From positions 12,984-44,983 of the forward strand of contig JAUVVG010000030.1 of the NCBI GenBank assembly GCA_030604735.1: a stretch of DNA of 32,000 nucleotides, in the 5' to 3' direction. Shown one piece after another: positions 3,944 to 13,507 of this stretch. Origin of the DNA: Azoarcus sp. (GTDB lineage Bacteria; Pseudomonadota; Gammaproteobacteria; Burkholderiales; Rhodocyclaceae). Under the pieces are notes generated by a model, which made no database searches, was not told the DNA's origin, and worked only from the letters and a program-made list of their open reading frames with translations. Position numbers and translations under genes: made by a program. Position 1 is the first letter of the stretch. Each line of letters starts with the position of its first letter.

Positions 3944-4609
3944 ATGTTCTACGGGATCACAGACCTCACGACCTTCATTCTGGGCACGATTTTCATCGTG
4001 CTGTTGCCGGGTCCAAACTCGCTCTACGTGATGTCTGCCGCCTCGCGCTGGGGCGTCGCCGCAGGGTACCGCGGTGCCTGCGGAATCTGCGTCGGCGACC
4101 TGATCCTGATGCTGCTCGCAGTCAGCGGCACCGCCTCGTTGCTGCGGACCACGCCGGAACTGTTCATGGTCATCAAGTACGCCGGCGCGGCCTATCTGGC
4201 ATGGGTCGGCATTGGTTTGTTGCGTTCAGCAATTCAAAGCTGGCGAAAGCAGGGCAGTTTCACCGAGGCTTCGGTCACGCAGAACGATGCGGTGGTGCGT
4301 AATAGTCCGCGTACATTCCGGACCGCGCTAGTGATCAGTTTGATGAACCCGAAGGCAATCCTTTTTTTCGTGTCGTTCTTCATTCAGTTCGTGGACCCGG
4401 CTTACGCCCATCCAGGACTCTCATTCATGATTCTGGGCGTCATCGTTCAGATCTGCAGCGCACTGTACCTGTCTGCGCTGATCTTCGGTGGGGCCTATCT
4501 TGCCGTTCAGTTCAGGAAGCGTCGTCGCCTCGCCGCGGGCGCAACCGGCGCCATAGGCGGGTTGTTCATCGCGTTCGGAGCAAAACTGGCGACCGCAACC
4601 TTGTCCTGA
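3944..4609 (+). CDS. leuE: LysE/RhtB-family amino-acid exporter (LeuE-like)
   Basis: MFYGITDLTTFILGTIFIVLLPGPNSLYV... resembles the E. coli LeuE N-terminus (IFIVLVPGPN). It is a multi-TM protein of 221 aa. The track start at 3878 adds 22 non-homologous residues. Confidence 0.75.
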   Translation: MFYGITDLTTFILGTIFIVLLPGPNSLYVMSAASRWGVAAGYRGACGICVGDLILMLLAVSGTASLLRTTPELFMVIKYAGAAYLAWVGIGLLRSAIQSWRKQGSFTEASVTQNDAVVRNSPRTFRTALVISLMNPKAILFFVSFFIQFVDPAYAHPGLSFMILGVIVQICSALYLSALIFGGAYLAVQFRKRRRLAAGATGAIGGLFIAFGAKLATATLS

Positions 4610-4747
4610 GCGATGCGGCGGGGGGTGGCGTCATGATGTCGACACCCAATCCCCGGCCTGAGAGGTTCCAAAGTCCGAACGCTTTCGACTTGGTGAGAGC
4701 GATCAGGCTTGTTCCGTCAGGGGCGCCGGACCGGTTTCATTCCCTCG

Positions 4748-5050
4748 TTACACGTACCGGACAGAATGGTGTCTGATATCGTAGTTTACATAATACAGAT
4801 TATCGTTCTTTCCTTCGTAGAATCTGGCGAGCCTTTCTATGCCCCGTGCATAGCCAAATGGGTCACGCGCTTTGGCCAGGATGATGCAAATCAGATGAAG
4901 TTCGAAAGGAGAGACGCCGAGCAATAGCAGGCGTTTTTTTTCGGCCAGGATTTTCCGGTACCAGGTGCGTCGACTGGGTCGCGTGGCTCGTGGGGTGAGC
5001 CTGCGTCGACAGTACAAGTTCGCGAGGTTTCGGGACCAGTCGGGGAGCAT
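4748..5050 (-). CDS. Hypothetical protein (Arg-rich N-terminus, possible winged-helix-like core)
   Basis: Starts at an internal ATG of track ORF 4748..5284: MLPDWSRNLANLYCRRRLTPRATRPSRRTWYRKILAEKKRLLLLGVSPFELHLICIILAKARDPFGYARGIERLARFYEGKNDNLYYVNYDIRHHSVRYV. The AT-richer 3' part looks coding. There is no clear RBS and I recognise no family. Confidence 0.4.
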   Translation of the reverse strand: MLPDWSRNLANLYCRRRLTPRATRPSRRTWYRKILAEKKRLLLLGVSPFELHLICIILAKARDPFGYARGIERLARFYEGKNDNLYYVNYDIRHHSVRYV

Positions 5051-5075
5051 GGGGTTTTTTAATCGACTGGGGGGA

Positions 5076-5241
5076 TCGGCGCAAGCGCCGACCGGGCTTC
5101 CTACGGACTGCGCTTCGCTCCGGTCCCTTCGGGACACGCCTTCGGCGTTCCTTCGGATCCCTTCCCCCTCCAGGCCTGTCGGCCTTCCGCGCTCCGCTTG
5201 GCCGCTGCGTTCCGCAGCGCGATCAGAGCCGCTACGCGGCT
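5076..5241. repeat. Array of short perfect GC hairpins with 2-4 nt loops
   Basis: TCGGCGC-AA-GCGCCGA (5076-5091), GTCCC-TTC-GGGAC (5123-5135), ACGCC-TTC-GGCGT (5136-5148), AGGCC-TGTC-GGCCT (5172-5185), CGCTGCG-TTC-CGCAGCG (5203-5219) and AGCCGC-TAC-GCGGCT (5227-5241). Confidence 0.7.
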
Positions 5242-5243
5242 GT

Positions 5244-5456
5244 GCCTTCTTCCCTGCCCTTGCGCTTTCCCGACCCCCTATCACTGCCGCCCTTTTGCCC
5301 GCTTGTGCCGCATCAAGTCGGAAAGAAAAGGGTAAAGGCTTCGCCCCGCTTCGCGGCCCTTGTCTTTCCTTTGTTGATACGGCCCGGCACGGTCAGGGCG
5401 ACAGCGATAGGGGGTACGGTGGGAAAAAAGACAAGAGTGCAGGGAAGAAGGAAGGC
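5244..5456. repeat. Imperfect inverted repeat of about 210 nt (rod-like hairpin, apex about 5351)
   Basis: CCTTCTTCCCTGC (5245-5257) is the exact reverse complement of GCAGGGAAGAAGG (5439-5451). Inner arms also pair: CCCCTATCACTGCCGCCC with GGGCGACAGCGATAGGGG, GTGCCG..ATCAA with TTGAT..CGGCAC, and GGAAAGA.AAGGG with CCCTT.TCTTTCC. The apical hairpin is CCGC-TTC-GCGG (5346-5356). Confidence 0.75.
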
Positions 5457-5522
5457 AAACCCGGATGGGCTCGAGCTCCAGGGGCCCGGTAGGTTTAACG
5501 ACGGAAAAAGCGAGGTGATGAG

Positions 5523-5762
5523 ATGACGATCAAAGTTCTGAAGACATACAGGCGCGAACAACCAGGGCAAACCCCGTTTAAGGTAATGACCCGCGTGTAT
5601 TTTGATGACTATTTGGAAGAATACACAGTCGGACTATTTGTCGACGGGAAGAAGCAGAAGGGCGCGACCTACTTCACCGACGATAAAGACGATGCCCTGC
5701 AAACCGCGCAGTACATGAGGAACCACCTGGACGAGATTGTAGAGGGAGTGGGACGGTCATGA
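5523..5762 (+). CDS. Hypothetical protein, 79 aa (prophage accessory gene)
   Basis: ATG is preceded by GAGGTG. The sequence is complex and non-repetitive (MTIKVLKTYRREQPGQTPFKVMTRVYFDDYLEEYTVGLFVDGKKQKGATYFTDDKDDALQTAQYMRNHLDEIVEGVGRS). It lies on the strand opposite the phage operon, has lower GC, and its stop overlaps the next ATG (ATGA). Confidence 0.6.
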   Translation: MTIKVLKTYRREQPGQTPFKVMTRVYFDDYLEEYTVGLFVDGKKQKGATYFTDDKDDALQTAQYMRNHLDEIVEGVGRS

Positions 5763-5974
5763 AAATCAGGCCTAGCAGTAGCAACGCGTTCGGAATCAGA
5801 TTCACAGGATACGATATGGTATGGGACATCCGGACAGATATGTTTCCGTGGAGATACATGATACAAGCAGAGCTCGGCGCATTGGATGCGCCGGACACTT
5901 TACCAGGGGGGATCATGATCGAGTACCTGGAAGGCACGTATGGGATGCTGCCATCAGTGGCAAAACGAAACTAA
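5759..5974 (+). CDS. Hypothetical protein, 71 aa (ATGA-coupled to the 79-aa ORF)
   Basis: ATGA overlap at 5759-5762. Sequence: MKIRPSSSNAFGIRFTGYDMVWDIRTDMFPWRYMIQAELGALDAPDTLPGGIMIEYLEGTYGMLPSVAKRN. It is followed 5 nt later by the hairpin (5979-6007) that carries the 29-bp repeat (5982-6010). I recognise no family. Confidence 0.5.
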   Translation: MKIRPSSSNAFGIRFTGYDMVWDIRTDMFPWRYMIQAELGALDAPDTLPGGIMIEYLEGTYGMLPSVAKRN

Positions 5975-5981
5975 CTAACCT

Positions 5982-6010
5982 GGATAGGAGGGGGACTCCT
6001 GTCCAGGCTG
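5982..6010. repeat. 29-bp direct repeat, copy 1 (hairpin-forming)
   Basis: GGATAGGAGGGGGACTCCTGTCCAGGCTG is identical to 6206-6234. The hairpin CCTGGATAGGAG-GGGGA-CTCCTGTCCAGG spans 5979-6007 and has one T.G pair on the plus strand. Confidence 0.95.
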
Positions 6011-6034
6011 AAGTATGAGATGAGAGGCAGAGTG

Positions 6035-6175
6035 ATGAACGACCGAGAAGAAAACATATACAACGGGTTCAAAATATTAATAATATTGATCGGATCGATA
6101 GCGATCGGATATGAACTCGGCAGCGGAGTTGGAATTGCGGCATTCTGTTTTTCTGTTGTAATGAAGTTGAAATAG
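6035..6175 (+). CDS. Small hydrophobic peptide, 46 aa (not in track)
   Basis: Hand translation gives MNDREENIYNGFKILIILIGSIAIGYELGSGVGIAAFCFSVVMKLK, with one predicted TM segment. GAGAGG lies upstream. This is the AT-richest part of the window and sits exactly between the two 29-bp repeats. Confidence 0.4.
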   Translation: MNDREENIYNGFKILIILIGSIAIGYELGSGVGIAAFCFSVVMKLK

Positions 6176-6198
6176 GTGGGCTTGAAAACAGAGAAGAA

Positions 6199-7173
6199 CT
6201 AGCCGGGATAGGAGGGGGACTCCTGTCCAGGCTGGACAACCGGCAGAGCGAACGGCAATGGGCGATCCATTGCCGTTCTGCATTGGAAGTCGGTCATGTC
6301 GAGAATCTTCCCATCGTTGCCGAAGCAGCGACAGGCACGAGCGTTCATGATGCAGCCATGGATCGGTTCAAGTCGATCAGCAAAGACCCAGTCGGATATA
6401 CCGTCAGAGACCGGTATAACGCGCTGCCTCACCGGTGGTTCCGGGGAAGCAGCGCGAGAGCCCTCCCCCACACCCCCGACGGGGCTTTGCAGGATGGAAA
6501 CGACTTCACTGGTATCGGATGCGACACCGAAGGCGGTGGCGATCATGCCGTCCGAGTTCGCGATGCGGGTCACGACCCATCCGACGAGCAGGACCAGGAC
6601 CACACCCATGATGATGATCTTGCGGGGTATCTTGCGCTTAACGGTATGAATCGTGGCTGACTTGTAGAGGTCGAAGAGTTTCTTGTCGTATCGCCAGATT
6701 TCCATGTCGGCCGCGTCGCGTTGCTGGCGGTCGTTTGGATCGAGAACGGCATGCTGCCACTTGTAAAGTGTGGTCTGCTGGAGGCCAGCGGGGCGCATCA
6801 AATGGATATGAGCCGGGGAGCCACCGCCGCCGAGGTGTTCCCTCACCTGGTGGTGGACCTTGGTCGGATACTGAGTCGCAATGAGGAAATCGAAACCCCG
6901 GTGACGGTGTTTGTCGAGGTCGACAATCTCGCCTTCCTGGGAGCGTCCTGGCTTGCCTGTCGCAGGCCAACGCTGGTGGACTTCGTCGATGACGATGAAG
7001 GCACCATCGGCGCACTGGCGCCAGTCGTCGGGGAGCGGATCGACGCCATCCAGCTTGAGGCCATCGACGTTGGAGTAGACCGGGCGGCCTTGCTTGACCG
7101 CTTCAACGGTCTCGCGCATGAGGAACAGCGACTTCCCAGAACCCGGGGAGCCGGTCACGAGCGAAATGGGCAT
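6199..7173 (-). CDS. Filamentous-phage assembly ATPase pI (Zot-like)
   Basis: MPISLVTGSPGSGKSLFLMRETVEAV... Walker A at the N-terminus, IVIDEVH Walker B-like motif, a central TM segment (IIIMGVVLVLLVGWVV) and a Cys-containing C-terminal domain. The start ATG 7173 overlaps the upstream stop (TAATG). The track start at 7275 is an extension. Confidence 0.9.
   Translation of the reverse strand: MPISLVTGSPGSGKSLFLMRETVEAVKQGRPVYSNVDGLKLDGVDPLPDDWRQCADGAFIVIDEVHQRWPATGKPGRSQEGEIVDLDKHRHRGFDFLIATQYPTKVHHQVREHLGGGGSPAHIHLMRPAGLQQTTLYKWQHAVLDPNDRQQRDAADMEIWRYDKKLFDLYKSATIHTVKRKIPRKIIIMGVVLVLLVGWVVTRIANSDGMIATAFGVASDTSEVVSILQSPVGGVGEGSRAASPEPPVRQRVIPVSDGISDWVFADRLEPIHGCIMNARACRCFGNDGKILDMTDFQCRTAMDRPLPFALPVVQPGQESPSYPG
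6206..6234. repeat. 29-bp direct repeat, copy 2 (inside the 3' end of the zot-like gene)
   Basis: Identical 29-mer. It encodes the last residues (..VVQPGQESPSYPG) of the pI/Zot ORF on the minus strand. Confidence 0.95.
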
Positions 7174-7454
7174 TAGTTGGACTTCCCTATGAAGATTTGG
7201 GCGGCCTGGATTGCGATCCGGGCCGAGAGGCCCGAGAGAACCGCCGAGAGAGCCACCCCAAAGCCCGCCATCCAAAGAATCTGAGCAGCAGCCGGAAGCA
7301 GTCCCGAAAGATTAGAGAGAACATGGCCCACCCATTCATTGAAAAGCGGTTCGATGACAACGTAAGTGCCGATGCCGAGACCCGCCCCGACGAGAATTCG
7401 GGCGACGGCAGAGACCATAATCCACATACCGACATAGAACAGCATGCCTTGCAT
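7173..7454 (-). CDS. Putative minor coat/assembly membrane protein (pVI-like)
   Basis: 93 aa and very hydrophobic (MQGMLFYVGMWIMVSAVARILVGAGLGIGTYVV...). It lies between the pIII-like and pI genes as in other inoviruses, with TAATG overlaps on both sides. Confidence 0.6.
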   Translation of the reverse strand: MQGMLFYVGMWIMVSAVARILVGAGLGIGTYVVIEPLFNEWVGHVLSNLSGLLPAAAQILWMAGFGVALSAVLSGLSARIAIQAAQIFIGKSN

Positions 7455-8782
7455 TACGATCGCCTCCAGCCGACAAGAATCATGACTGCCGCGAGCCAGC
7501 CGGTGGCGATCACCAGGGGTCGAACAGCAGTTGCGAAATCACAAAACGGGTCATATTTGACCTGGACAGCGCCGAGGCCGATGCTCAAGTTCATAGGTGC
7601 GGGGCAGGTGCCGGACGACGGTAGGCCGAAGTTCTGCGCCGAGAGTTGGACGGGATCGAGTTCGGGGAGGTCGACACTTTCCGGGTCGTCTGCCTCATCA
7701 CGGAACCAGTCGGCCAGATCGCAAACGATCGTTGCCCAGTCGCAGAAGCCAGGAAGTTCGAATGGGGGTGGCGGTTCGACAGGGGGGTTCGTGGGATTAA
7801 TATGCTCAGGTGCGACGTTAGGGTCGACTTGCGGATTACCTTCCGGGTCCGCCGTCGTGAGAGGTTCCCGGAAGGGATCGAGACGGAGACGCCAGGGCGA
7901 CTCGGGTGTCGGATCGGGGGTTATGCGGACCTTGTCTTGCCAGGGCTGACCGGTGAGCGGATCGGTGTAGGGGTTTCCGAGGGGTTCGACGAATGGCGTA
8001 ATCTCGGGAACCTGTACAGGCAATGGCAAGTGGCGAGCAACATCCGATAAAACATGAGCAGGCCAGTTAGCGGTCGTGACCGTGTTCCACTGAGAATCCC
8101 CTGCTACTTGCACTTGTCCAACACAGAAACCACCATTCAAAACCAAGTTCGTTGGACACACATCCGTTTGATGACGGGTAACCCCCTGGCCACCCGTCCA
8201 AACCAAAACGCCATTTTGATAATGCCGGTAGAGAAGTTCCGGCGCAGAATACCCTATGACTTGATATGTATTGATCCCACTGTTGAAGTACGAAACGAAA
8301 GCAGCGGCATACTGCAAAAAATCACACTGAACACCCGATGGTGATCCCGGCGCTGTGCATCCAGGAACAGAACCAGTGAAAAAACCGGACGGAATGTCAT
8401 ACGCGACAGGAGTGGACTCGGGAATAGACCAATCACCGTTAACGAAATCCATCGAAAACTCTGCCAAGAGCCACGCCGCTACAGATGTGCCGACAAACAA
8501 GAGCGGGTTAGCGCGTACAAAGGGCGCAGCATATTGTCCCCCGTTTGCCGCCATACGAAGCGAAGCAGGCACAGTGACCGACTTTCCGGCTACCTGTACC
8601 CTTGCAGCCGCTTGGAACGCAGAGCCGCTCCAAGCAACGGACGAAGGCGGCTTATAAAAAGAACCGGAAGTAGCTTGAGACCATCCACTCGGGGGGGTCG
8701 CCGCCGCGTATTGCGACGATGCAACACCGGGGAGCAGCAGCACGAGAATCAGTACAGCAAGAGCCATGCGCCCCCCAGGCAT
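7454..8782 (-). CDS. Putative adsorption protein (pIII-like)
   Basis: Lies between the coat genes and the pVI/pI genes. It has a signal-peptide-like N-terminus (MPGGRMALAVLILVLLLPGVASS), a Pro-rich linker (PDPTPESP.., PTNPPVEPPPPFELP) and a C-terminal anchor (LVIATGWLAAVMILVGWRRS). An alternative ATG is at 8767. Confidence 0.65.
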   Translation of the reverse strand: MPGGRMALAVLILVLLLPGVASSQYAAATPPSGWSQATSGSFYKPPSSVAWSGSAFQAAARVQVAGKSVTVPASLRMAANGGQYAAPFVRANPLLFVGTSVAAWLLAEFSMDFVNGDWSIPESTPVAYDIPSGFFTGSVPGCTAPGSPSGVQCDFLQYAAAFVSYFNSGINTYQVIGYSAPELLYRHYQNGVLVWTGGQGVTRHQTDVCPTNLVLNGGFCVGQVQVAGDSQWNTVTTANWPAHVLSDVARHLPLPVQVPEITPFVEPLGNPYTDPLTGQPWQDKVRITPDPTPESPWRLRLDPFREPLTTADPEGNPQVDPNVAPEHINPTNPPVEPPPPFELPGFCDWATIVCDLADWFRDEADDPESVDLPELDPVQLSAQNFGLPSSGTCPAPMNLSIGLGAVQVKYDPFCDFATAVRPLVIATGWLAAVMILVGWRRS

Positions 8783-8824
8783 GCCAGCATGACATAGTAG
8801 CCTTCCATGATTTTCTCCCTGGAT

Positions 8825-8848
8825 GGGACGAGGGTCGCCCCCCGTCCC
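8825..8848 (-). terminator. GC hairpin between coat gene and pIII-like gene (possible attenuator)
   Basis: GGGACGAGGG-TCG-CCCCCCGTCCC has about 10 bp of stem with one mismatch and no clear U-tract. Its position mirrors the partial terminator after gene VIII in Ff phages. Confidence 0.3.
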
Positions 8849-8860
8849 GGTTGAGTCAGA

Positions 8861-8989
8861 TCAGAAGAACGATGCCTTGATCCAGCGGAAGGCAAAGACG
8901 ACGACAGCGACACCGATGATGGCGAGGCCAACGGTTTCGATGTCAGTACCCGCATCAGCAATGGCGGTATTTACGGAAGTGAGATCCAT
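8861..8989 (-). CDS. Major coat protein, Pf3-type, leaderless (copy 2)
   Basis: Hand translation gives MDLTSVNTAIADAGTDIETVGLAIIGVAVVVFAFRWIKASFF (42 aa), with GGAGAA upstream. The C-terminus closely resembles the Pf3 coat (..GGAIIVLAAVVLGIRWIKAQFF). It is not in the track because it is under 60 aa; track ORF 8749..8961 is in another frame. Confidence 0.85.
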   Translation of the reverse strand: MDLTSVNTAIADAGTDIETVGLAIIGVAVVVFAFRWIKASFF

Positions 8990-9007
8990 GTGAGATTCTC
9001 CAAAAAT

Positions 9008-9136
9008 TTAGAAAAATGAACCCTTGATCCAGCGGAACAAGAAGACCACTACAGCGACACTAATGATCGCGAGACCGAGAGACTCGATGTCCGTCGATAC
9101 CAAACCAATAGAGTCCATTACGCCTTCGATAGACAT
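9008..9136 (-). CDS. Major coat protein, Pf3-type, leaderless (copy 1)
   Basis: Starts at an internal ATG of track ORF 9008..9196: MSIEGVMDSIGLVSTDIESLGLAIISVAVVVFLFRWIKGSFF (42 aa), with GGAG 5 nt upstream. It is a paralogue of 8861..8989. Confidence 0.85.
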   Translation of the reverse strand: MSIEGVMDSIGLVSTDIESLGLAIISVAVVVFLFRWIKGSFF

Positions 9137-9138
9137 AC

Positions 9139-9318
9139 CTATCTCCGGTTGAGAACGACGTAGGCGATCTGGCGCGCGGCCCAGGCTGTGGCCCAAACCG
9201 CAAAAATCGCCCCGCTTATCACCAGCCCATCTTCAGCGGATAGAGCCGGTAATCCTGTGACGTACTGAACCCAGGCAGTACAGTCGTTATTCGTGATTTC
9301 CGTGCAGACGAAGTACAC
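9139..9318 (-). CDS. Hypothetical small membrane protein, 59 aa, GTG start
   Basis: Hand translation gives (V)YFVCTEITNNDCTAWVQYVTGLPALSAEDGLVISGAIFAVWATAWAARQIAYVVLNRR. The GTG immediately follows, in frame, the TAA of the 25-aa ORF. The stop lies 2 nt before the coat copy 1 start. Confidence 0.35.
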   Translation of the reverse strand: MYFVCTEITNNDCTAWVQYVTGLPALSAEDGLVISGAIFAVWATAWAARQIAYVVLNRR

Positions 9319-9396
9319 TTAGAACACCCTTGCGAACATCACACCGAAGGTGACCGTGAGGCCGAACGAACCGAGAAACCAGATTGCTGATTGCAT
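9319..9396 (-). CDS. Hypothetical 25-aa hydrophobic peptide (pVII/pIX-size)
   Basis: MQSAIWFLGSFGLTVTFGVMFARVF, with AAGGGGAA upstream, 10 nt after the stop of the preceding micro-ORF. Confidence 0.4.
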   Translation of the reverse strand: MQSAIWFLGSFGLTVTFGVMFARVF

Positions 9397-9406
9397 GGGA
9401 TTCCCC

Positions 9407-9544
9407 TTATGAGCGTAGAAGCGCAAGCGCGTTGGAGACGATCGGAGAGGTATAAAGAGCAACGCCTGCAAGAAGTAAGGCGAAGGCTACGGACCCCAAA
9501 CACGAGACGAACAGGACCCATTCCCAGAACGAATAGATTTGCAT
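9407..9544 (-). CDS. Hypothetical 45-aa membrane peptide
   Basis: MQIYSFWEWVLFVSCLGSVAFALLLAGVALYTSPIVSNALALLRS, with AGGAA upstream. The longer track ORF 9407..9775 runs through the noncoding region downstream of rep. Confidence 0.5.
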   Translation of the reverse strand: MQIYSFWEWVLFVSCLGSVAFALLLAGVALYTSPIVSNALALLRS

Positions 9545-9735
9545 GGGGTTCCTTGATAATTGGGATAGCGATCGGTTACGTTCTGGCGCACTTATGAGCG
9601 CACAGGATTCAATGAACTGACGTTGGGCGGTCGGCGCGGGGTGGGCGGCGAGCCTGCCCACTCCCCCGCCGCCGCCGTCCTCGACAGGCCCACGATTGGG
9701 TTCCCACGCTTGCGCGTCATCGGCACGCTTGAGCA

Positions 9736-10881
9736 TTACGCCGCCCTCCTCGAGACATCGGGCAGCCCGTACCACTCCGGAGCCTGGAGGGGTTGAAGGG
9801 TGAAGGACGGCAGGCCATCAAGCAGCGTCTGGAGTTGATCGACGGAACCGTCTGACTTGATAGGACGCGGTTCGGACGCGTCGATGCCGTAGTCGCGGAG
9901 AGCCTTGACGTGCCGGAAGTAGGTGGCGCGACTGTAGAGTTCGCGGAGATCGTCGCCCCTGATCCAGTGAAGGGCCGCCGATCGGACCTTGGTCGGCATT
10001 TCGGAGACGATGCGAGCGGCCCGATCGGGCGTGACATCGTGCAGGAATCGGGTTTCGGCCCGGAACAAACTGATGATCTTGGCCATGTTGGCATCCCCTA
10101 TGAACCTAAGCGCGTTGTCGCGTAAAAAGTCTTTACCCCATTTGCATTCGATACGGACGAGTCCGAGATCGCGAGCGAATTGATATTCCTGGCTGGACTT
10201 GACCCTTTTCTTGGCTTCATCGCCCTTGGCGTGGTCGAGCATTTCCTGAGCTTTGCGATAAACGACGATGCGTTTGTGAAGCTTGCCGCTCCGCTTTCCA
10301 AAGACCACGGTCTGAGTACCGTAGACGCCTTTGGAAAGCCGGGCAGCACGAAGGCCGGTGAAGTACCGCATCACTTCGATGGAGAGCTTGTCATTGCCGG
10401 CAGCCATGTTCTCGGTGACGTGGAGTTCGCGAAGAACGGCACCGGTCCATTCGGTCCAGAGGCCGAGGTCGTGGTCATGCTTGGAGACGGACGCCTTCGC
10501 ACGGCATTCCCCAGGCGTGAAGCGCGGTAGGTCGTGGGCCTGGACGATGTCAGAGGCCTTGTCGATGGTATCGACGATGTCGTAATTCCACACGTTGTCG
10601 GGGCGGTCGAAGCGCCCGACGTTACCGGAGAGTTCAACGTTCCTGCCGTCGCAGCGCACCAGGAGCGAGGTGTCATGTGAGCCGCGACGCTGAAGGCGTG
10701 GAACCTGATAGGTGACGTTGTCGCCGTCTGGGGTGAGCACACACCACTTGCGCCCGTCCGTCGTTTCCATCATTTCGAATGACTTGCCCCGGACCCGGAC
10801 GCCATCGGAGACGATCGGCAGATCGATATCGTCTACCGCGTGGCGTTGGGCGAAGGAAAGCCAGTCGATAAAGACGCTCAT
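9736..10881 (-). CDS. Rolling-circle replication initiator (gene II/CRI-type phage Rep)
   Basis: The MSVFIDWLSFAQ.. N-terminus (IDWL motif) and its size are typical of filamentous-phage replication proteins. The ATG at 10881 forms an ATGA overlap with the upstream ORF stop. The track start at 10890 is a GTG. Confidence 0.8.
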   Translation of the reverse strand: MSVFIDWLSFAQRHAVDDIDLPIVSDGVRVRGKSFEMMETTDGRKWCVLTPDGDNVTYQVPRLQRRGSHDTSLLVRCDGRNVELSGNVGRFDRPDNVWNYDIVDTIDKASDIVQAHDLPRFTPGECRAKASVSKHDHDLGLWTEWTGAVLRELHVTENMAAGNDKLSIEVMRYFTGLRAARLSKGVYGTQTVVFGKRSGKLHKRIVVYRKAQEMLDHAKGDEAKKRVKSSQEYQFARDLGLVRIECKWGKDFLRDNALRFIGDANMAKIISLFRAETRFLHDVTPDRAARIVSEMPTKVRSAALHWIRGDDLRELYSRATYFRHVKALRDYGIDASEPRPIKSDGSVDQLQTLLDGLPSFTLQPLQAPEWYGLPDVSRRAA

Positions 10882-11246
10882 CGGCCCCACCCATGTACGT
10901 AGGGATTCGAAGCCTCAAGATCGGCAAGGTCGTAACCCATCGCAACAAGACGAGCACTAACCGAGTTCAAACCCGACGAACTAGTCTCAAATTGAGACTC
11001 CACAGCACTCTTTACTTGTACGTGCTGTGAAGGGCCGAACCGGCCGCTGGAGGTGGTCGGGACGATCGGGGTGGTGAAGGAGTCGGCACGGTAGAAAAGC
11101 TCAAGTGCACCATCAGTGATCCGGAGGACCGATTGGTCCCCGTCACGCTGAAGGCGCACCAGCTCAGTGAGGGAGTCAACGAAAGAACGCGAGCGGAACA
11201 GTTCGAATGTTCCGCTTCGCGTTTCGCGTTCGAGGACGTAGGCCAT
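10878..11246 (-). CDS. Hypothetical protein, 122 aa
   Basis: Translationally coupled on both sides (TAATG at 11246, ATGA at 10878-10881). The sequence is complex and I recognise no family. Confidence 0.6.
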   Translation of the reverse strand: MAYVLERETRSGTFELFRSRSFVDSLTELVRLQRDGDQSVLRITDGALELFYRADSFTTPIVPTTSSGRFGPSQHVQVKSAVESQFETSSSGLNSVSARLVAMGYDLADLEASNPYVHGWGR

Positions 11247-11482
11247 TACGTGAAAGCCTTTTTGCCAGCGGACGTACTGACAGAAAGCTCACCATTAAAA
11301 TGCTGCCGTAGGTCCTTCATGTACCTATCGAGCGATTCCCGGAGCTGTTTACCAAGCATTTTCGGAACAACCTGACAAACGAGAGGTGTGGAAACCCCAT
11401 CCTCTCCAGGCACCAAAACAAAGGCGACGTAATACCGCCCGCATGTGGAAGGAACATGGAAGCCTTCAACCCGTAGCGACAT
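11246..11482 (-). CDS. Hypothetical protein, 78 aa
   Basis: Its ATG is 3 nt after the upstream stop (TGAGCCATG), and its stop overlaps the next start. Confidence 0.6.
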   Translation of the reverse strand: MSLRVEGFHVPSTCGRYYVAFVLVPGEDGVSTPLVCQVVPKMLGKQLRESLDRYMKDLRQHFNGELSVSTSAGKKAFT

Positions 11483-11485
11483 GGC

Positions 11486-11809
11486 TCAGTCCTCGACCAC
11501 GAACAGCTTGTTGTCGGCAGTGACGACAGTGCGTTGTTCGCCCGTTTCCCGGTCCGTGGATTTGTAGGAACGGCGGTAGCCGCCGATCCGGCAATGAAGG
11601 GTAATGTCTTGTTCCTGGTCGGCCTGGCGGGTTTTGGCCAGAACTTCGACGGTGGCCGGACTGGAGTACGGATCAGCGGCAGGAAGGACAACGAGGTGCG
11701 CGAAGTAGGTGCCCTGCTTCTTCGCCGACATGCAACGGCCCTTGATGATGACTTCACCGACTTTGAGTGATGGACCTTGTGCCTTTGGCAGTTCTGCTAA
11801 AGCAGTCAT
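11486..11809 (-). CDS. First gene of phage operon; possible ssDNA-binding protein (gV-like)
   Basis: ATG 11809 has GGAGAA 6 nt upstream. It is 107 aa with a beta-rich-looking sequence. The function is assigned only from position and size. The track start at 11836 is a GTG inside the operator. Confidence 0.45.
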   Translation of the reverse strand: MTALAELPKAQGPSLKVGEVIIKGRCMSAKKQGTYFAHLVVLPAADPYSSPATVEVLAKTRQADQEQDITLHCRIGGYRRSYKSTDRETGEQRTVVTADNKLFVVED

Positions 11810-11827
11810 GGTGGGTTCTCCGGTTGA

Positions 11828-11845
11828 ACTTTCCACATGGAAAGT
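11828..11845. promoter_or_regulatory. Candidate operator: perfect palindrome ACTTTCCA-CA-TGGAAAGT plus extra half-sites
   Basis: 8-bp perfect inverted repeat with a 2-bp spacer. Further half-sites are TGGAAAGT (11864-11871) and CGGAAAGT (11883-11890). TCAAGCGGAA occurs twice (11878-11887 and 11891-11900). Confidence 0.5.
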
Positions 11846-11851
11846 GCTCGC

Positions 11852-11881
11852 AGACTATCCAAATGGAAAGTAACTTGTCAA
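11852..11881 (-). promoter_or_regulatory. Candidate sigma70 promoter of the phage replication/structural operon
   Basis: On the minus strand: TTGACA (11881-11876), an 18-nt spacer, then TAGTCT (11857-11852). The palindrome starts 6 nt downstream of the -10, and one half-site lies within the spacer. Confidence 0.45.
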
Positions 11882-11925
11882 GCGGAAAGTTCAAGCGGAA
11901 GATGGCGAGACAGGAGGATAAGACG

Positions 11926-12348
11926 ATGGATATAGAAGCAAAGTGCTCGCAGGTAATGCGCAGAAACGGGTGGACGCAGCGTGAGCTAGCTACCGCTTTA
12001 GGCATAAGCGAAACGACATTGTCAAACGTCTTGAAAGGGCGTCGATCGTTGCCCGTTCATGCGTTTGTCAAATTAGAAAGGATGAGGGGAATAGACGATA
12101 AATCAATCGTCGATGAACTGATCCGAGCGGCCGCAAGTGTGGCGGCCGTTGTCATTTTGTTTTCGCCAGGGGGGAGCGAAGGGCCACGAACGGCGCCGGA
12201 TTCCGATACGAGAAGTGCACAGATTACAGATTATAACGATACAGAAGAAACGACTGAGAATGCGTATGCGGACAGTTCGTGCTCAAAGCCCTGTCGGAGT
12301 TTTTTACATCAGCCGGTCATCAGCATGATCAGAATCCCTTTTGCGTGA
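11926..12348 (+). CDS. XRE-family HTH repressor (phage c-repressor-like)
   Basis: ATG 11926 is preceded by AGGAGG. MDIEAKCSQVMRRNGWTQRELATALGISETTLSNVLKGRRSLP is a classic Cro/CI-type HTH. It is divergent from the phage operon. The C-terminal half is non-homologous (hydrophobic AAASVAAVVILF followed by an acidic tail). Confidence 0.8.
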   Translation: MDIEAKCSQVMRRNGWTQRELATALGISETTLSNVLKGRRSLPVHAFVKLERMRGIDDKSIVDELIRAAASVAAVVILFSPGGSEGPRTAPDSDTRSAQITDYNDTEETTENAYADSSCSKPCRSFLHQPVISMIRIPFA

Positions 12349-12471
12349 AATAAGTCACGGATTAGAAAGGCTTGTTTTCTAGTGGGCGTGATTCGTGCTT
12401 GGGATAATGAAAGAGATGGCTCGCCTGACGGACGGCGCGGTGACGATCCGGGCGGGGTGTATGGAGAAATA

Positions 12472-12651
12472 ATGAGAAATTCGCGGCCGGATCAACGCGT
12501 CGATCTCGCAATGCGACAATTCGTCGGCAAGATCATCGAGTATCTGATGGAAGGCGGTGACCATGCCAACGCAATGATGAATATGGCCGAACGGGGCGTG
12601 CCCTACACGGTTCAGCGCCGGGTTATAGAGGGCAACGCGACCCGTCAGTGA
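12472..12651 (+). CDS. Hypothetical protein, 59 aa
   Basis: GGAG lies 5 nt upstream of the ATG. Sequence: MRNSRPDQRVDLAMRQFVGKIIEYLMEGGDHANAMMNMAERGVPYTVQRRVIEGNATRQ. This is preferred over the antisense ORF 12379..12564, but the call is weak. Confidence 0.35.
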   Translation: MRNSRPDQRVDLAMRQFVGKIIEYLMEGGDHANAMMNMAERGVPYTVQRRVIEGNATRQ

Positions 12652-12753
12652 TCAGGGCCTATCTTGATTAGGTATGCGAAGGTCGGATGACCAGGCGCCC
12701 GAATCCAGTATTACCCGATCGTGCCCGACAAAGACTCCATGCCCTGCAAAATC

Positions 12754-12770
12754 CTGATCGAAGCGATCAG
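12754..12770 (-). terminator. Possible mtnP terminator hairpin overlapping the stop codon
   Basis: CTGATCG-AAG-CGATCAG (7-bp perfect stem), followed on the minus strand by GATTTTG. Confidence 0.3.
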
Positions 12771-13507
12771 TCCTGGCAAATCCGTCCAAGCAGTTGCCGA
12801 ACCCGTGCCATCGCCTCTTGGAGAACCACCTCGATCTGTTCGAATTCGATCCGCTGTTCGCTGTCTCCGCGACCGGCCGCGTAATTGGCGATTACATTGA
12901 TGGCGGCATAAGGCAAACCGAGTTCGCGCGCCAGCGCCGCCTCGGGCATGCCAGTCATGCCGACCAGGTCGGCTCCGTCGCGTTCCAGGCGAGTAATCTC
13001 GGCCGCCGTCTCGAGCCTGGGTCCCTGCGTGGTTGCATAGACCCCGCCATCGAATACGGTTTGCTGGCAAGCCTTGGCCGCGATAAGAATCCGCTCGCGT
13101 AGCGCCCGATCGTAGGGATGGGTGAAGTCGATGTGCTGCACTGGCTGGTCTCCGCCACCTTCAAAGAAGGTGCCCACCCTGCCCCAGGTGTAATCGATGA
13201 TCTGATCTGGAATCACGAGCGTACCCGGCTTGAACTCGGTCCGTATGCCGCCCACCGATGCGACCGAGACGATCCCGGTCGCCTTTGCCTGCTTCAGCGC
13301 CCAAATGTTGGCCCGATAATTCACTTGGTGTGGCGGAATGGTATGGCCGTAACCATGGCGGGGCAGAAATACGACCGGCTTGTTGGCAAGTTCGCCGAAG
13401 ATGAGTGCGCCCGACGGTTCGCCATAAGGCGTGCGAACCACTTCGCGTCGGACGATCTCCAGTGAGGACAGACGGGTCAGGCCGCTACCGCCGATGATCG
13501 CAAGCAT
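12767..13507 (-). CDS. mtnP: Methylthioadenosine/methylthioinosine phosphorylase (PNP family)
   Basis: MLAIIGGSGLT...FLPRHGYGHTIPPHQVNYRANIWALK...GMTGMPEAALARE is typical of MTAP/MtiP. The ATG at 13507 has AAGGAGA upstream. The track start at 13546 is an extension. Confidence 0.85.
   Translation of the reverse strand: MLAIIGGSGLTRLSSLEIVRREVVRTPYGEPSGALIFGELANKPVVFLPRHGYGHTIPPHQVNYRANIWALKQAKATGIVSVASVGGIRTEFKPGTLVIPDQIIDYTWGRVGTFFEGGGDQPVQHIDFTHPYDRALRERILIAAKACQQTVFDGGVYATTQGPRLETAAEITRLERDGADLVGMTGMPEAALARELGLPYAAINVIANYAAGRGDSEQRIEFEQIEVVLQEAMARVRQLLGRICQD

Follow-up and report, generated by a model that had tools for sequence, protein, structure and literature searches.

Inoviruses that integrate at the dif site of their hosts are well known from Vibrio, Xanthomonas and other genera, and many functional inoviruses without a pIV gene use the secretin of their host, among them CTXphi and the Pf phages. 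To our knowledge, the Pf3-type structural module has so far been known from one phage, which is non-lysogenic and plasmid-specific. Here we describe a putative temperate inovirus with a Pf3-like structural module that appears to be integrated at dif in Azoarcus sp. The DNA analysed (from here: the window) comprises 32,000 nt, positions 12,984-44,983 of contig JAUVVG010000030.1.

In the Vibrio CTX-I inoviruses, a repressor gene lies at one end, and zot is followed by a variable region, a small att-adjacent gene and attP; the region between zot and the att-adjacent gene is hypervariable among prophages (PMC12715192). In TLCphi, the Xer-activation factor is the DUF3653 protein XafT, and DUF3653 genes occur beside dif in many gamma- and betaproteobacterial integrative mobile elements that exploit Xer (IMEXs) (PMC6744903). 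Midonet et al. asked whether Xer activation factors occur outside DUF3653 (PMC6744903).

The segment from approximately 4797 to 12227 of the window is very probably a temperate inovirus of 7,431 bp that was integrated at the host dif by XerC and XerD, and thus an IMEX. Among the repeats detected was a 21-nt pair (family D6, 17/21 positions identical) with copies at 4783 and 12214, and these coincide with two dif-like sites. The sites and the phage genes that overlap them are:

4748-5050, minus strand: orfL, coding for a small basic four-helix protein of 100 amino acids as integrated; the last phage gene before dif
4783-4810, minus strand: complete dif-like site 1 at the orfL end, 28 bp, AAGAACGATAA (XerC arm)-TCTGTA (centre)-TTATGTAAACT (XerD arm)
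11926-12348, plus strand, divergent: XRE-family repressor, 140 amino acids as integrated (HTH_3, 2.5e-08)
12214-12241, minus strand: hybrid dif-like site 2 at the repressor end, 28 bp, TATCGTTATAA-TCTGTA-ATCTGTGCACT

Site 1 has the canonical 11-6-11 layout of dif with an XerD arm of the type TTATGTnAA; it is unique in the window, and none of 100 shuffles gave a match. In site 2, the XerD-side arm agrees with the dif XerD arm at 7/11 positions and both sites have the same central hexamer (TCTGTA at 4794-4799 and 12225-12230). The two sites have a 10-nt core in common and enclose exactly the phage gene set. None of the open reading frames (ORFs) of 4748-12651 that were scanned against Pfam, PHROGs and NCBIfam contains a recombinase (integrase or transposase) domain, and the window contains no tRNA gene. 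Because dif-like sites bracket the element and both a recombinase domain and a tRNA gene are lacking, we read it as an IMEX that borrows XerC and XerD of the host. Two features that define IMEXs were found, a dif on one side and on the other a dif-like site that has the central region in common, and no self-encoded integrase or transposase. A tRNA attachment site was rejected, as no tRNA gene is present. GC skew is positive to the left of approximately 13-15 kb and negative to the right, as at a replication terminus; this signal is weak since only 32 kb are visible.

A preliminary description of this DNA had already read the locus as an inovirus prophage. That reading stands as far as it went, while the flanking dif-like sites, and with them integration by XerCD, had not been recognised. 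Its borders, 4700 and 12770, were drawn too wide, the element lying between sites 1 and 2.

Recombination within the central hexamers was used to reconstruct the excised circle of 7,431 bp. The attP on this circular replicative form would read AAGAACGATAA-TCTGTA-ATCTGTGCACT, with a good XerC arm, a dif-identical centre and a partly degenerate XerD arm, and the predicted circle junction is AAGAACGATAATCTGTAATCTGTGCACT. The XerC arm has the CGATAA core of the clade, and the XerD-side arm deviates at 4/11 positions. XerCD would have recombined this attP with dif. The orfL end would thereby have received a complete dif, composed of the phage XerC arm and the XerD arm of the host, and the repressor end a hybrid site. 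Excision would leave the chromosome with TATCGTTATAA-TCTGTA-TTATGTAAACT, the restored dif being TATCGTTATAATCTGTATTATGTAAACT. In the reconstruction, both terminal genes cross attP. The XRE ORF, which extends 107 nt beyond site 2, changes from 140 amino acids in the integrated state to 129 with a different tail in the circle, and orfL from 100 to 85 amino acids, its stop codon then lying in the central region of att. An attP of the CTXphi type, a folded single-stranded DNA (ssDNA) hairpin of two inverted dif-like sites, was rejected: one dif-like half comes from the element, the att regions do not fold (z = 0.3) and 4800-12230 contains no second inverted dif-like site.

For comparison, loci and contigs were retrieved by homology (labelled L004, L082 and so on). 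A query with MtnP, the product of a flanking gene, returned 80 betaproteobacterial mtnP loci. The closest Zot homologues are 49-53% identical, and the contigs that carry them, L082-L084, which are metagenome contigs of uncultured organisms, were fetched as well. The genes flanking the element are:

3944-4609, plus strand: gene of a LysE-family exporter, left flank (family search)
12767-13507, minus strand: PNP_UDP_1 or methylthioadenosine-phosphorylase-type gene (mtnP), right flank (family search)

None of the 80 related mtnP loci carries the element (no Zot or Rep). The Azoarcus metagenome-assembled genome (MAG) L004 has an empty dif, AACCGCGATAA-TTTGTA-TTATGTAAACT, 150 bp beyond egtB at the syntenic position; its gene order, typA-mtnP-egtD-egtB-dif...radA, corresponds to the window in neighbourhood and orientation. 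The XerD arm of site 1 is identical to the arm of this empty dif, and the inner XerC arm matches too. The preliminary description had placed the prophage between leuE and mtnP, which was right as to the kinds of flanking gene, LysE-family and methylthioadenosine-phosphorylase-type. In the relatives, however, the two genes do not adjoin each other, and the locus is probably the terminus/dif region and not an intergenic site of leuE and mtnP.

The related prophages end in the same manner. In L082 (1-6324, Zot 50% identical), from another uncultured host, the prophage abuts a complete dif-like site beside egtB-egtD-mtnP-typA, the chromosomal neighbourhood seen in the window, but the orientation of the prophage is opposite. 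L084 (Zot 49% identical) shows the polarity of the window: its repressor end bears a degenerate site, and a complete dif follows Zot. L083 is a 5,478-bp circle, as judged from the overlap of its ends by 30 nt, and has a dif-like attP in the corresponding position. A dif-like site directly behind the orfL homologue was found in L082, L087, L089 and L091-L093. The empty dif of L004, the dif-ended contigs of the relatives and the terminus-like GC skew together argue that the dif-like sites are not due to chance. The att polarity is opposite, with the XerD-type arm beside orfL, in L082 (1506-1533), L083 (4811-4838) and L088 (~982), and the degenerate arm in the circular L083 is the other one, CGAAGCAGCAC; hence, one phage clade seems to use attP with either arm degenerate. 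Single-protein scans of IMG/VR with Zot and with Rep returned no relatives, and for the whole 8 kb Megablast detected no match among 50,697 phage records.

Beyond these elements, a near-palindromic sequence, GCACATAATAACGGTAATTATGC, was observed ~4 kb from mtnP in two Nitrosomonas loci and in a MAG of unclassified Proteobacteria:

L046, 6043-6070 (unclassified Proteobacteria): near-palindromic GCACATAATAACGGTAATTATGC
L050, 6030-6057 (Nitrosomonas): near-palindromic GCACATAATAACGGTAATTATGC
L051, 6005-6032 (Nitrosomonas): near-palindromic GCACATAATAACGGTAATTATGC

It could be the dif of these genomes, which would place mtnP near the terminus across several betaproteobacterial lineages.

Between the two sites, an ORF map with an explicit check of the junctions showed twelve minus-strand ORFs from 11809 down to 6199. 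They were searched against Pfam, PHROGs, NCBIfam and PADLOC, with curated cut-offs of 20.3 bits for PF05707, 23.5 for PF05356, 25 for G2P_X_C and 21.7 for Phage_CRI. In the order of transcription they are:

11486-11809, minus strand: ssDNA-binding-like first gene, 107 amino acids (phrog_8473, ssDNA-binding protein, 3.1e-23)
10878-11482, minus strand: two ORFs of 122 and 78 amino acids, translationally coupled in the operon (overlapping junctions)
9736-10881, minus strand: rolling-circle replication initiator Rep of the G2P/CRI type, 381 amino acids (G2P_X_C, 34.5 bits; phrog_702, 3.8e-39)
9407-9736, minus strand: small hydrophobic ORF of 109 amino acids (TAATG overlap with Rep; hydrophobicity)
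9319-9471, minus strand: small hydrophobic ORF of ~25-50 amino acids, likely ATG start at 9396 (junctions, hydrophobicity)
9139-9318, minus strand: small virion or membrane protein of 59 amino acids in the pVII/pIX position (phrog_4644, 2.7e-12)
9008-9136, minus strand: major coat protein 2, 42 amino acids, tandem paralogue, no signal peptide (PF05356, 3.5e-08, 33.8 bits)
8861-8989, minus strand: major coat protein 1, 42 amino acids, no signal peptide (PF05356, 3.7e-13, 49.7 bits)
7454-8767, minus strand: pIII-like adsorption protein, 437 amino acids (phrog_13221, 9e-35)
7173-7454, minus strand: pVI-like minor coat or membrane protein, 93 amino acids (DUF2523, 3.4e-10; phrog_1242, 3.8e-18)
6199-7173, minus strand: Zot/pI morphogenesis ATPase, 324 amino acids (PF05707, 3.3e-24, 85.9 bits; phrog_197, 6.5e-58)

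TAATG overlaps join orf78 to orf122, Rep to orf109, the pIII-like to the pVI-like gene and the latter to Zot, and an ATGA overlap joins orf122 to Rep; the other gaps measure 0-18 nt, except for 93 nt ahead of the pIII-like gene. All core ORFs are full length and translationally coupled with intact starts. Zot begins with MPISLVTGSPGSGKS, and its best match among catalogued phages is ORF301 of Pf3 (33% identity). Rep starts with MSVFIDWLSF and scored 19.6 bits against Phage_CRI, below the cut-off of that family. The pIII-like protein has a signal-like N-terminal and a hydrophobic C-terminal anchor segment and is 26% identical to pIII of Ralstonia phages of the RSS/RSBg type and 37% to its counterpart in L083. 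Homologues of the 59-residue protein occur in L083, L084 and, as ORF58, in Pf3. The 109-residue and ~25-50-residue hydrophobic ORFs gave no family matches in the profile searches, nor did the 122- and 78-residue ORFs in Pfam, PHROGs, NCBIfam or PADLOC, and the ssDNA-binding-like protein matched no solved structure. The element has no gene for a secretin (pIV). Its GC content of 56.7% compares with 60.6% and 62.0% in the flanks.

The locus therefore presents each of the inovirus features that can be tested by sequence, namely a pI/Zot ATPase, a short alpha-helical coat protein that has a hydrophobic core and a basic C-terminus, a rolling-circle Rep and a compact order on one strand. Judged by these genes of a MAG, the element appears to be an inovirus with a predicted filamentous virion of circular ssDNA. 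Everything that the preliminary description had listed was borne out: the minus-strand operon from 11809 to 6199 stitched together by TAATG and ATGA overlaps, the FIDWLSF motif of Rep, the three small hydrophobic ORFs, the pIII-like protein with signal and anchor, the pVI-like protein, the divergent XRE repressor at the other end and the lower GC content. Profile searches returned the families it had named for Zot, Rep, coat and repressor (PF05707, G2P_X_C, PF05356, HTH_3), and DUF2523 in addition. The two 42-residue coats were Pf3-like as predicted, and Zot is nearest to that of Pf3; the label Pf3-type suits the structural module, whereas Rep is not Pf3-like and ORF430 of Pf3 is absent.

Coat protein 1 aligned from end to end with 1IFP, the solved structure of the Pf3 coat (residues 4-42 on 6-44, E = 1.3e-5), which supports reading it as a Pf3-type coat without a signal peptide; identity to ORF44 of Pf3 is 47% (tblastn). 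The two paralogues have 26/42 residues in common and 76% nucleotide identity over 85 nt; they differ mainly in the exposed N-terminus, the membrane and C-terminal parts being conserved, and each gene has a GGAG ribosome-binding site of its own. As L083 and L084 have a single coat gene, the doubling appears specific to the prophage in the window. The virion might be a mosaic of both coats.

L082-L084 resemble the window in the module orf59-coat-pIII-pVI-Zot-orfL-dif (35-66% protein identity) but have one coat gene and no cargo between Zot and orfL. Their replication modules and repressors differ from those of the window, with Rep_trans in L084 and a DUF3693-type repressor in L083; from these gene contents, the nearest relatives appear to be mosaic in both modules. 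A more distant relative with a Pf3-type coat, L098 (425-7967), carries ~1.4 tandem genome copies on one contig with the part from Rep to coat repeated, and is either a tandem prophage or a concatemer made by assembly. After its Zot gene, a DUF3653 gene and a gene for 159 amino acids lie on the opposite strand.

Downstream of Zot, the window carries additional DNA:

6186-6234 and 5962-6010: 49-nt direct repeat, 86% identical (family D2 of the repeat search)
6020-6175, plus strand: hydrophobic ORF of 51 amino acids bracketed by the 49-nt repeat (translation read from the sequence)
5523-5974, plus strand, opposite to the phage operon: two cargo ORFs of 79 and 71 amino acids with an ATGA overlap (orf79: phrog_7884, unknown function, 1.3e-14)
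5245-5451, minus strand: long imperfect hairpin of ~200 nt, GC-rich and non-coding, separating the cargo ORFs from orfL (inverted repeats I3 and I9)

The distance from Zot to orfL is 1.15 kb here compared to ~160-180 nt in L082-L084, which lack the cargo ORFs at the equivalent position. The region matches the one that is hypervariable in CTX-I prophages. In each copy of the 49-nt repeat, the 11 final codons and the stop of Zot are joined to a stem-loop (hairpin z = -4.9 and -2.95); the repeat resembles a scar left downstream of Zot when a small cassette inserted or a local duplication took place. The product of orf79 is weakly similar (41-49% identity over ~40 amino acids) to hypothetical proteins of tailed Pseudomonas phages. 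Neither cargo ORF had a match in Pfam, NCBIfam or PADLOC, and a function as defence or toxin-antitoxin genes was rejected on the negative PADLOC and NCBIfam results. A KAP-family NTPase gene lies directly after Zot, with a CsrA gene nearby, in L096/L097 (6125-12482; Zot 33% identical; contigs of 177-310 kb), a further example of cargo in the post-Zot slot.

Folded as ssDNA of the coding (virion-sense) strand, 5040-5520 reached -126.8 kcal/mol (z = -5.4), and none of 100 shuffles was as stable. This hairpin is a candidate packaging signal or origin of the complementary (minus) strand; it is absent from the short spacers between Zot and orfL in L082 and L084.

The gene between this hairpin and dif, orfL, codes for a protein with an isoelectric point of 10.9. 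Its homologues directly follow Zot in L082-L084. We counted 11 loci with checkable downstream sequence, not including the window, and in 10 of them a dif-like 28-mer lies within 30 nt of the stop codon of the orfL homologue, in either polarity. The stop often overlaps the site, and across divergent phages it is often the XerC arm that is overlapped. An exhaustive HMMER search assembled a family of 156 cluster representatives, all small proteins, with the consensus LYWxLR...RRxxYRxIxxEKxRLxxxGV; one member is fused to a G2P-type Rep domain. The family is without annotation, and orfL had no match in Pfam. An AlphaFold2 model has four helices (pLDDT 88.5), and Foldseek against PDB and BFVD returned nothing at E < 1. 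A relation to DUF3653/XafT was rejected for orfL: hmmscan gave no match at E values up to 10, four close homologues and 150 family members were likewise without a match, and hhalign against DUF3653 proteins of Xanthomonas gave a probability of 0.1%. PF12375 was not matched by any other ORF of the element either.

By its position, the orfL protein would have a role like that of XafT and help Xer recombination to proceed at an attP that is imperfect; this is the weakest step of the proposed mechanism. Tentatively, and with considerable doubt, orfL might found a second superfamily of phage Xer recombination accessory factors, unrelated to DUF3653/XafT, with which Betaproteobacteria inoviruses of the Pf3-coat type would insert an imperfect attP into dif, in one polarity or the other and without FtsK. 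It is quite conceivable, with a chance not far short of even, that orfL instead codes for a packaging-signal-binding or regulatory protein that merely adjoins attP. The precedent is PSB15 of phiLf, an att-adjacent DUF3653 protein that binds to the packaging signal and is not needed for integration (preprint 10.1101/2024.03.19.585677); because of it, we regard the packaging or regulatory function as about as likely as the function in Xer recombination. The strongly basic character of orfL and its place immediately downstream of the 200-nt hairpin agree with packaging, although the relatives L082 and L084 manage without a long hairpin in this spacer. The DUF3653 gene of L098 in the same post-Zot slot also fits and suggests non-homologous replacement within the same module. 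What speaks for a link to recombination is that the orfL stop lies within a few nucleotides of a dif-like site, with both att polarities and in divergent phages, a tie closer than the position in the operon alone requires. A new Xer accessory factor and a packaging factor are both candidate identities for the orfL product.

The remaining steps of the life cycle can be proposed from the control region:

11810-11925: divergent control region of 116 bp with four GGAAAGT half-sites in 11828-11890

GGAAAGT occurs eight times in the window against 2.7 expected, four of them within 63 bp, and one pair forms the palindrome ACTTTCC-ACAT-GGAAAGT. A promoter-like TTGACA-16-GATAGT (sigma-70-like at 10/12 positions) faces the phage operon and overlaps the GGAAAGT sites. 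This is the layout of a standard repressor/operator region, with the half-sites as putative operators through which the repressor would silence the minus-strand operon. On induction, Rep would drive rolling-circle replication, and the ssDNA would be coated and extruded through the Zot/pI machine and a secretin of the host, which export would need because the element has no pIV gene. The coat proteins would enter the membrane without a signal peptide, as the Pf3 coat does.

Alternatively, the inovirus could be integrated at dif but locked, a cryptic or domesticated island that yields neither excision nor virions. The missing pIV gene would fit such a state, yet functional inoviruses of this kind rely on host secretins (CTXphi, Pf phages). 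In the hybrid site, the atypical XerC arm and the partly degenerate XerD arm could prevent excision by the FtsK-dependent route, as has been described for the sites of the gonococcal genetic island (PMC6744903), whereas the central regions of both att sites are identical. The insertions and duplications downstream of Zot would fit it too, but the core ORFs are full length and coupled with intact starts. Finally, the single source contig offers no trace of a replicative form in the collections, while the relative L083 is circular. On balance, we consider a locked prophage unlikely.

Several observations weigh against an active dif-integrated inovirus with orfL as its Xer factor. The XerC arm of the hybrid site, TATCGTTATAA, is unlike the arms of the relatives (nnnCGATAA) and less like them than the arm of the phage itself. 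Next to it lies DNA outside the prophage:

12242-12766: spacer of 525 bp between the hybrid site and mtnP, 53% GC
12472-12651, plus strand: orphan ORF of 59 amino acids in the spacer, without family or phage matches

The atypical arm and the low GC content of these 525 bp make it possible that an older element had already modified the pre-integration site, and the spacer may be debris of such an insertion; 12242-12770 contains no third dif-like site at up to 2 mismatches. The attP XerD-side arm keeps 7/11 dif positions and is less degenerate than that of TLCphi, by which an XerD-first and an XerC-first pathway would both be possible. The only contig of the organism in the collections is the source itself (exact TypA sequence), so that they offer no empty site of the same species and no excision reads, and the best mtnP relatives are at most 76% identical. 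As the source is a MAG, a chimeric assembly may have occurred, though host genes continue on both sides. Moreover, orfL has no detectable relation to XafT/DUF3653, and the att-adjacent PSB15 acts in packaging, not integration (preprint 10.1101/2024.03.19.585677).

It is very improbable that the prophage is real but its dif-like sites are due to chance, with integration by another route, for instance through a recombinase of the host or of a helper that used an att site not recognised here, and with borders nearer 4700 and 12770. In favour of it, short two-copy repeat families are often chance matches, D6 is identical at only 17/21 positions, and the XRE ORF reaches 107 nt beyond site 2 with low-GC DNA up to 12766. 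Against it, site 1 has all 28 bp of a dif and the XerD arm of L004 and is unique in the window; the two sites share their 10-nt core, and exactly the phage genes lie between them. In at least eight related elements, a dif-like site directly behind an orfL homologue forms the end, Xf109 sets a precedent for an attP inside an XRE gene, and no recombinase is encoded.

With integration at dif as the preferred reading, the prophage itself adds little to what is known. The novelty lies in the family to which orfL belongs, in the doubling of the coat gene and in the finding of Pf3-type coats, which lack a signal peptide and should insert Sec-independently, in a wider, mostly uncultured clade of temperate, dif-targeting elements of Betaproteobacteria. 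This clade seems to swap the DUF3653 gene for an unrelated small protein with its stop codon tied to the att site, and orfL is a concrete, clonable candidate for the question of Xer factors outside DUF3653. The signature of orfL plus dif should be useful for finding further IMEXs, and the site marks the probable replication terminus of an uncultured genome, which may help in scaffolding.

Compared to Pf3 (Tertilicivirus), the element has a coat of the same kind, ~42-44 amino acids without a signal peptide and ending in RWIKAxFF, and the ORF58-like, pVI-like and pIII C-terminal proteins are homologous and in the same order. In contrast, Pf3 is a 5.8-kb non-integrating phage without a repressor or att module, its Rep region has no match to Rep of the window, and its ORF430 between the pVI-like gene and ORF301 has no equivalent here. 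Identities of 31-47% are far below genus level, and the window element has two coat genes. The structural module thus appears Pf3-like, while the element appears not to belong to the genus, because Zot is only 33% identical, there is no match at the DNA level, Rep is unrelated, and lysogeny and att modules have been added.

With IMEXs of the TLCphi type, the element probably has in common the integration at dif by XerCD of the host, in which a complete dif is restored, and it likewise has a small phage gene beside attP. Its predicted attP may also be of their double-stranded kind, with a good XerC arm, a dif-identical centre and a deviant XerD arm (PMC6744903, PMC9226527), but in TLCphi 8 positions of the XerD-side arm deviate (PMC9226527) compared to only 4/11 here. 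XafT is a protein of a helix-turn-helix domain plus DUF3653, whereas orfL has neither according to hidden Markov model, profile-profile and fold searches, and TLCphi is a satellite without morphogenesis genes.

The Vibrio CTX-I phages and Cf1c, XacF1, Xf109 and phiLf of Xanthomonas resemble the element in having a repressor at one terminus and a small att-adjacent gene at the other, variable cargo between zot and this gene (PMC12715192) and no integrase; as in the window, attP of Xf109 lies inside an XRE-family gene (ORF10, Xf109 annotation). In these phages, the DUF3653 gene (xafT or PSB15) lies opposite to the zot strand, whereas the window has an unrelated family on the zot strand; their coats have signal peptides (Xf109 annotation), and Zot identity is only ~27-28%. 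Judged by gene order and att sequences, the layout appears closest to that of the CTX-I type of Vibrio and the Cf1c/Xf109 type of Xanthomonas, and the attP closest to that of TLCphi.

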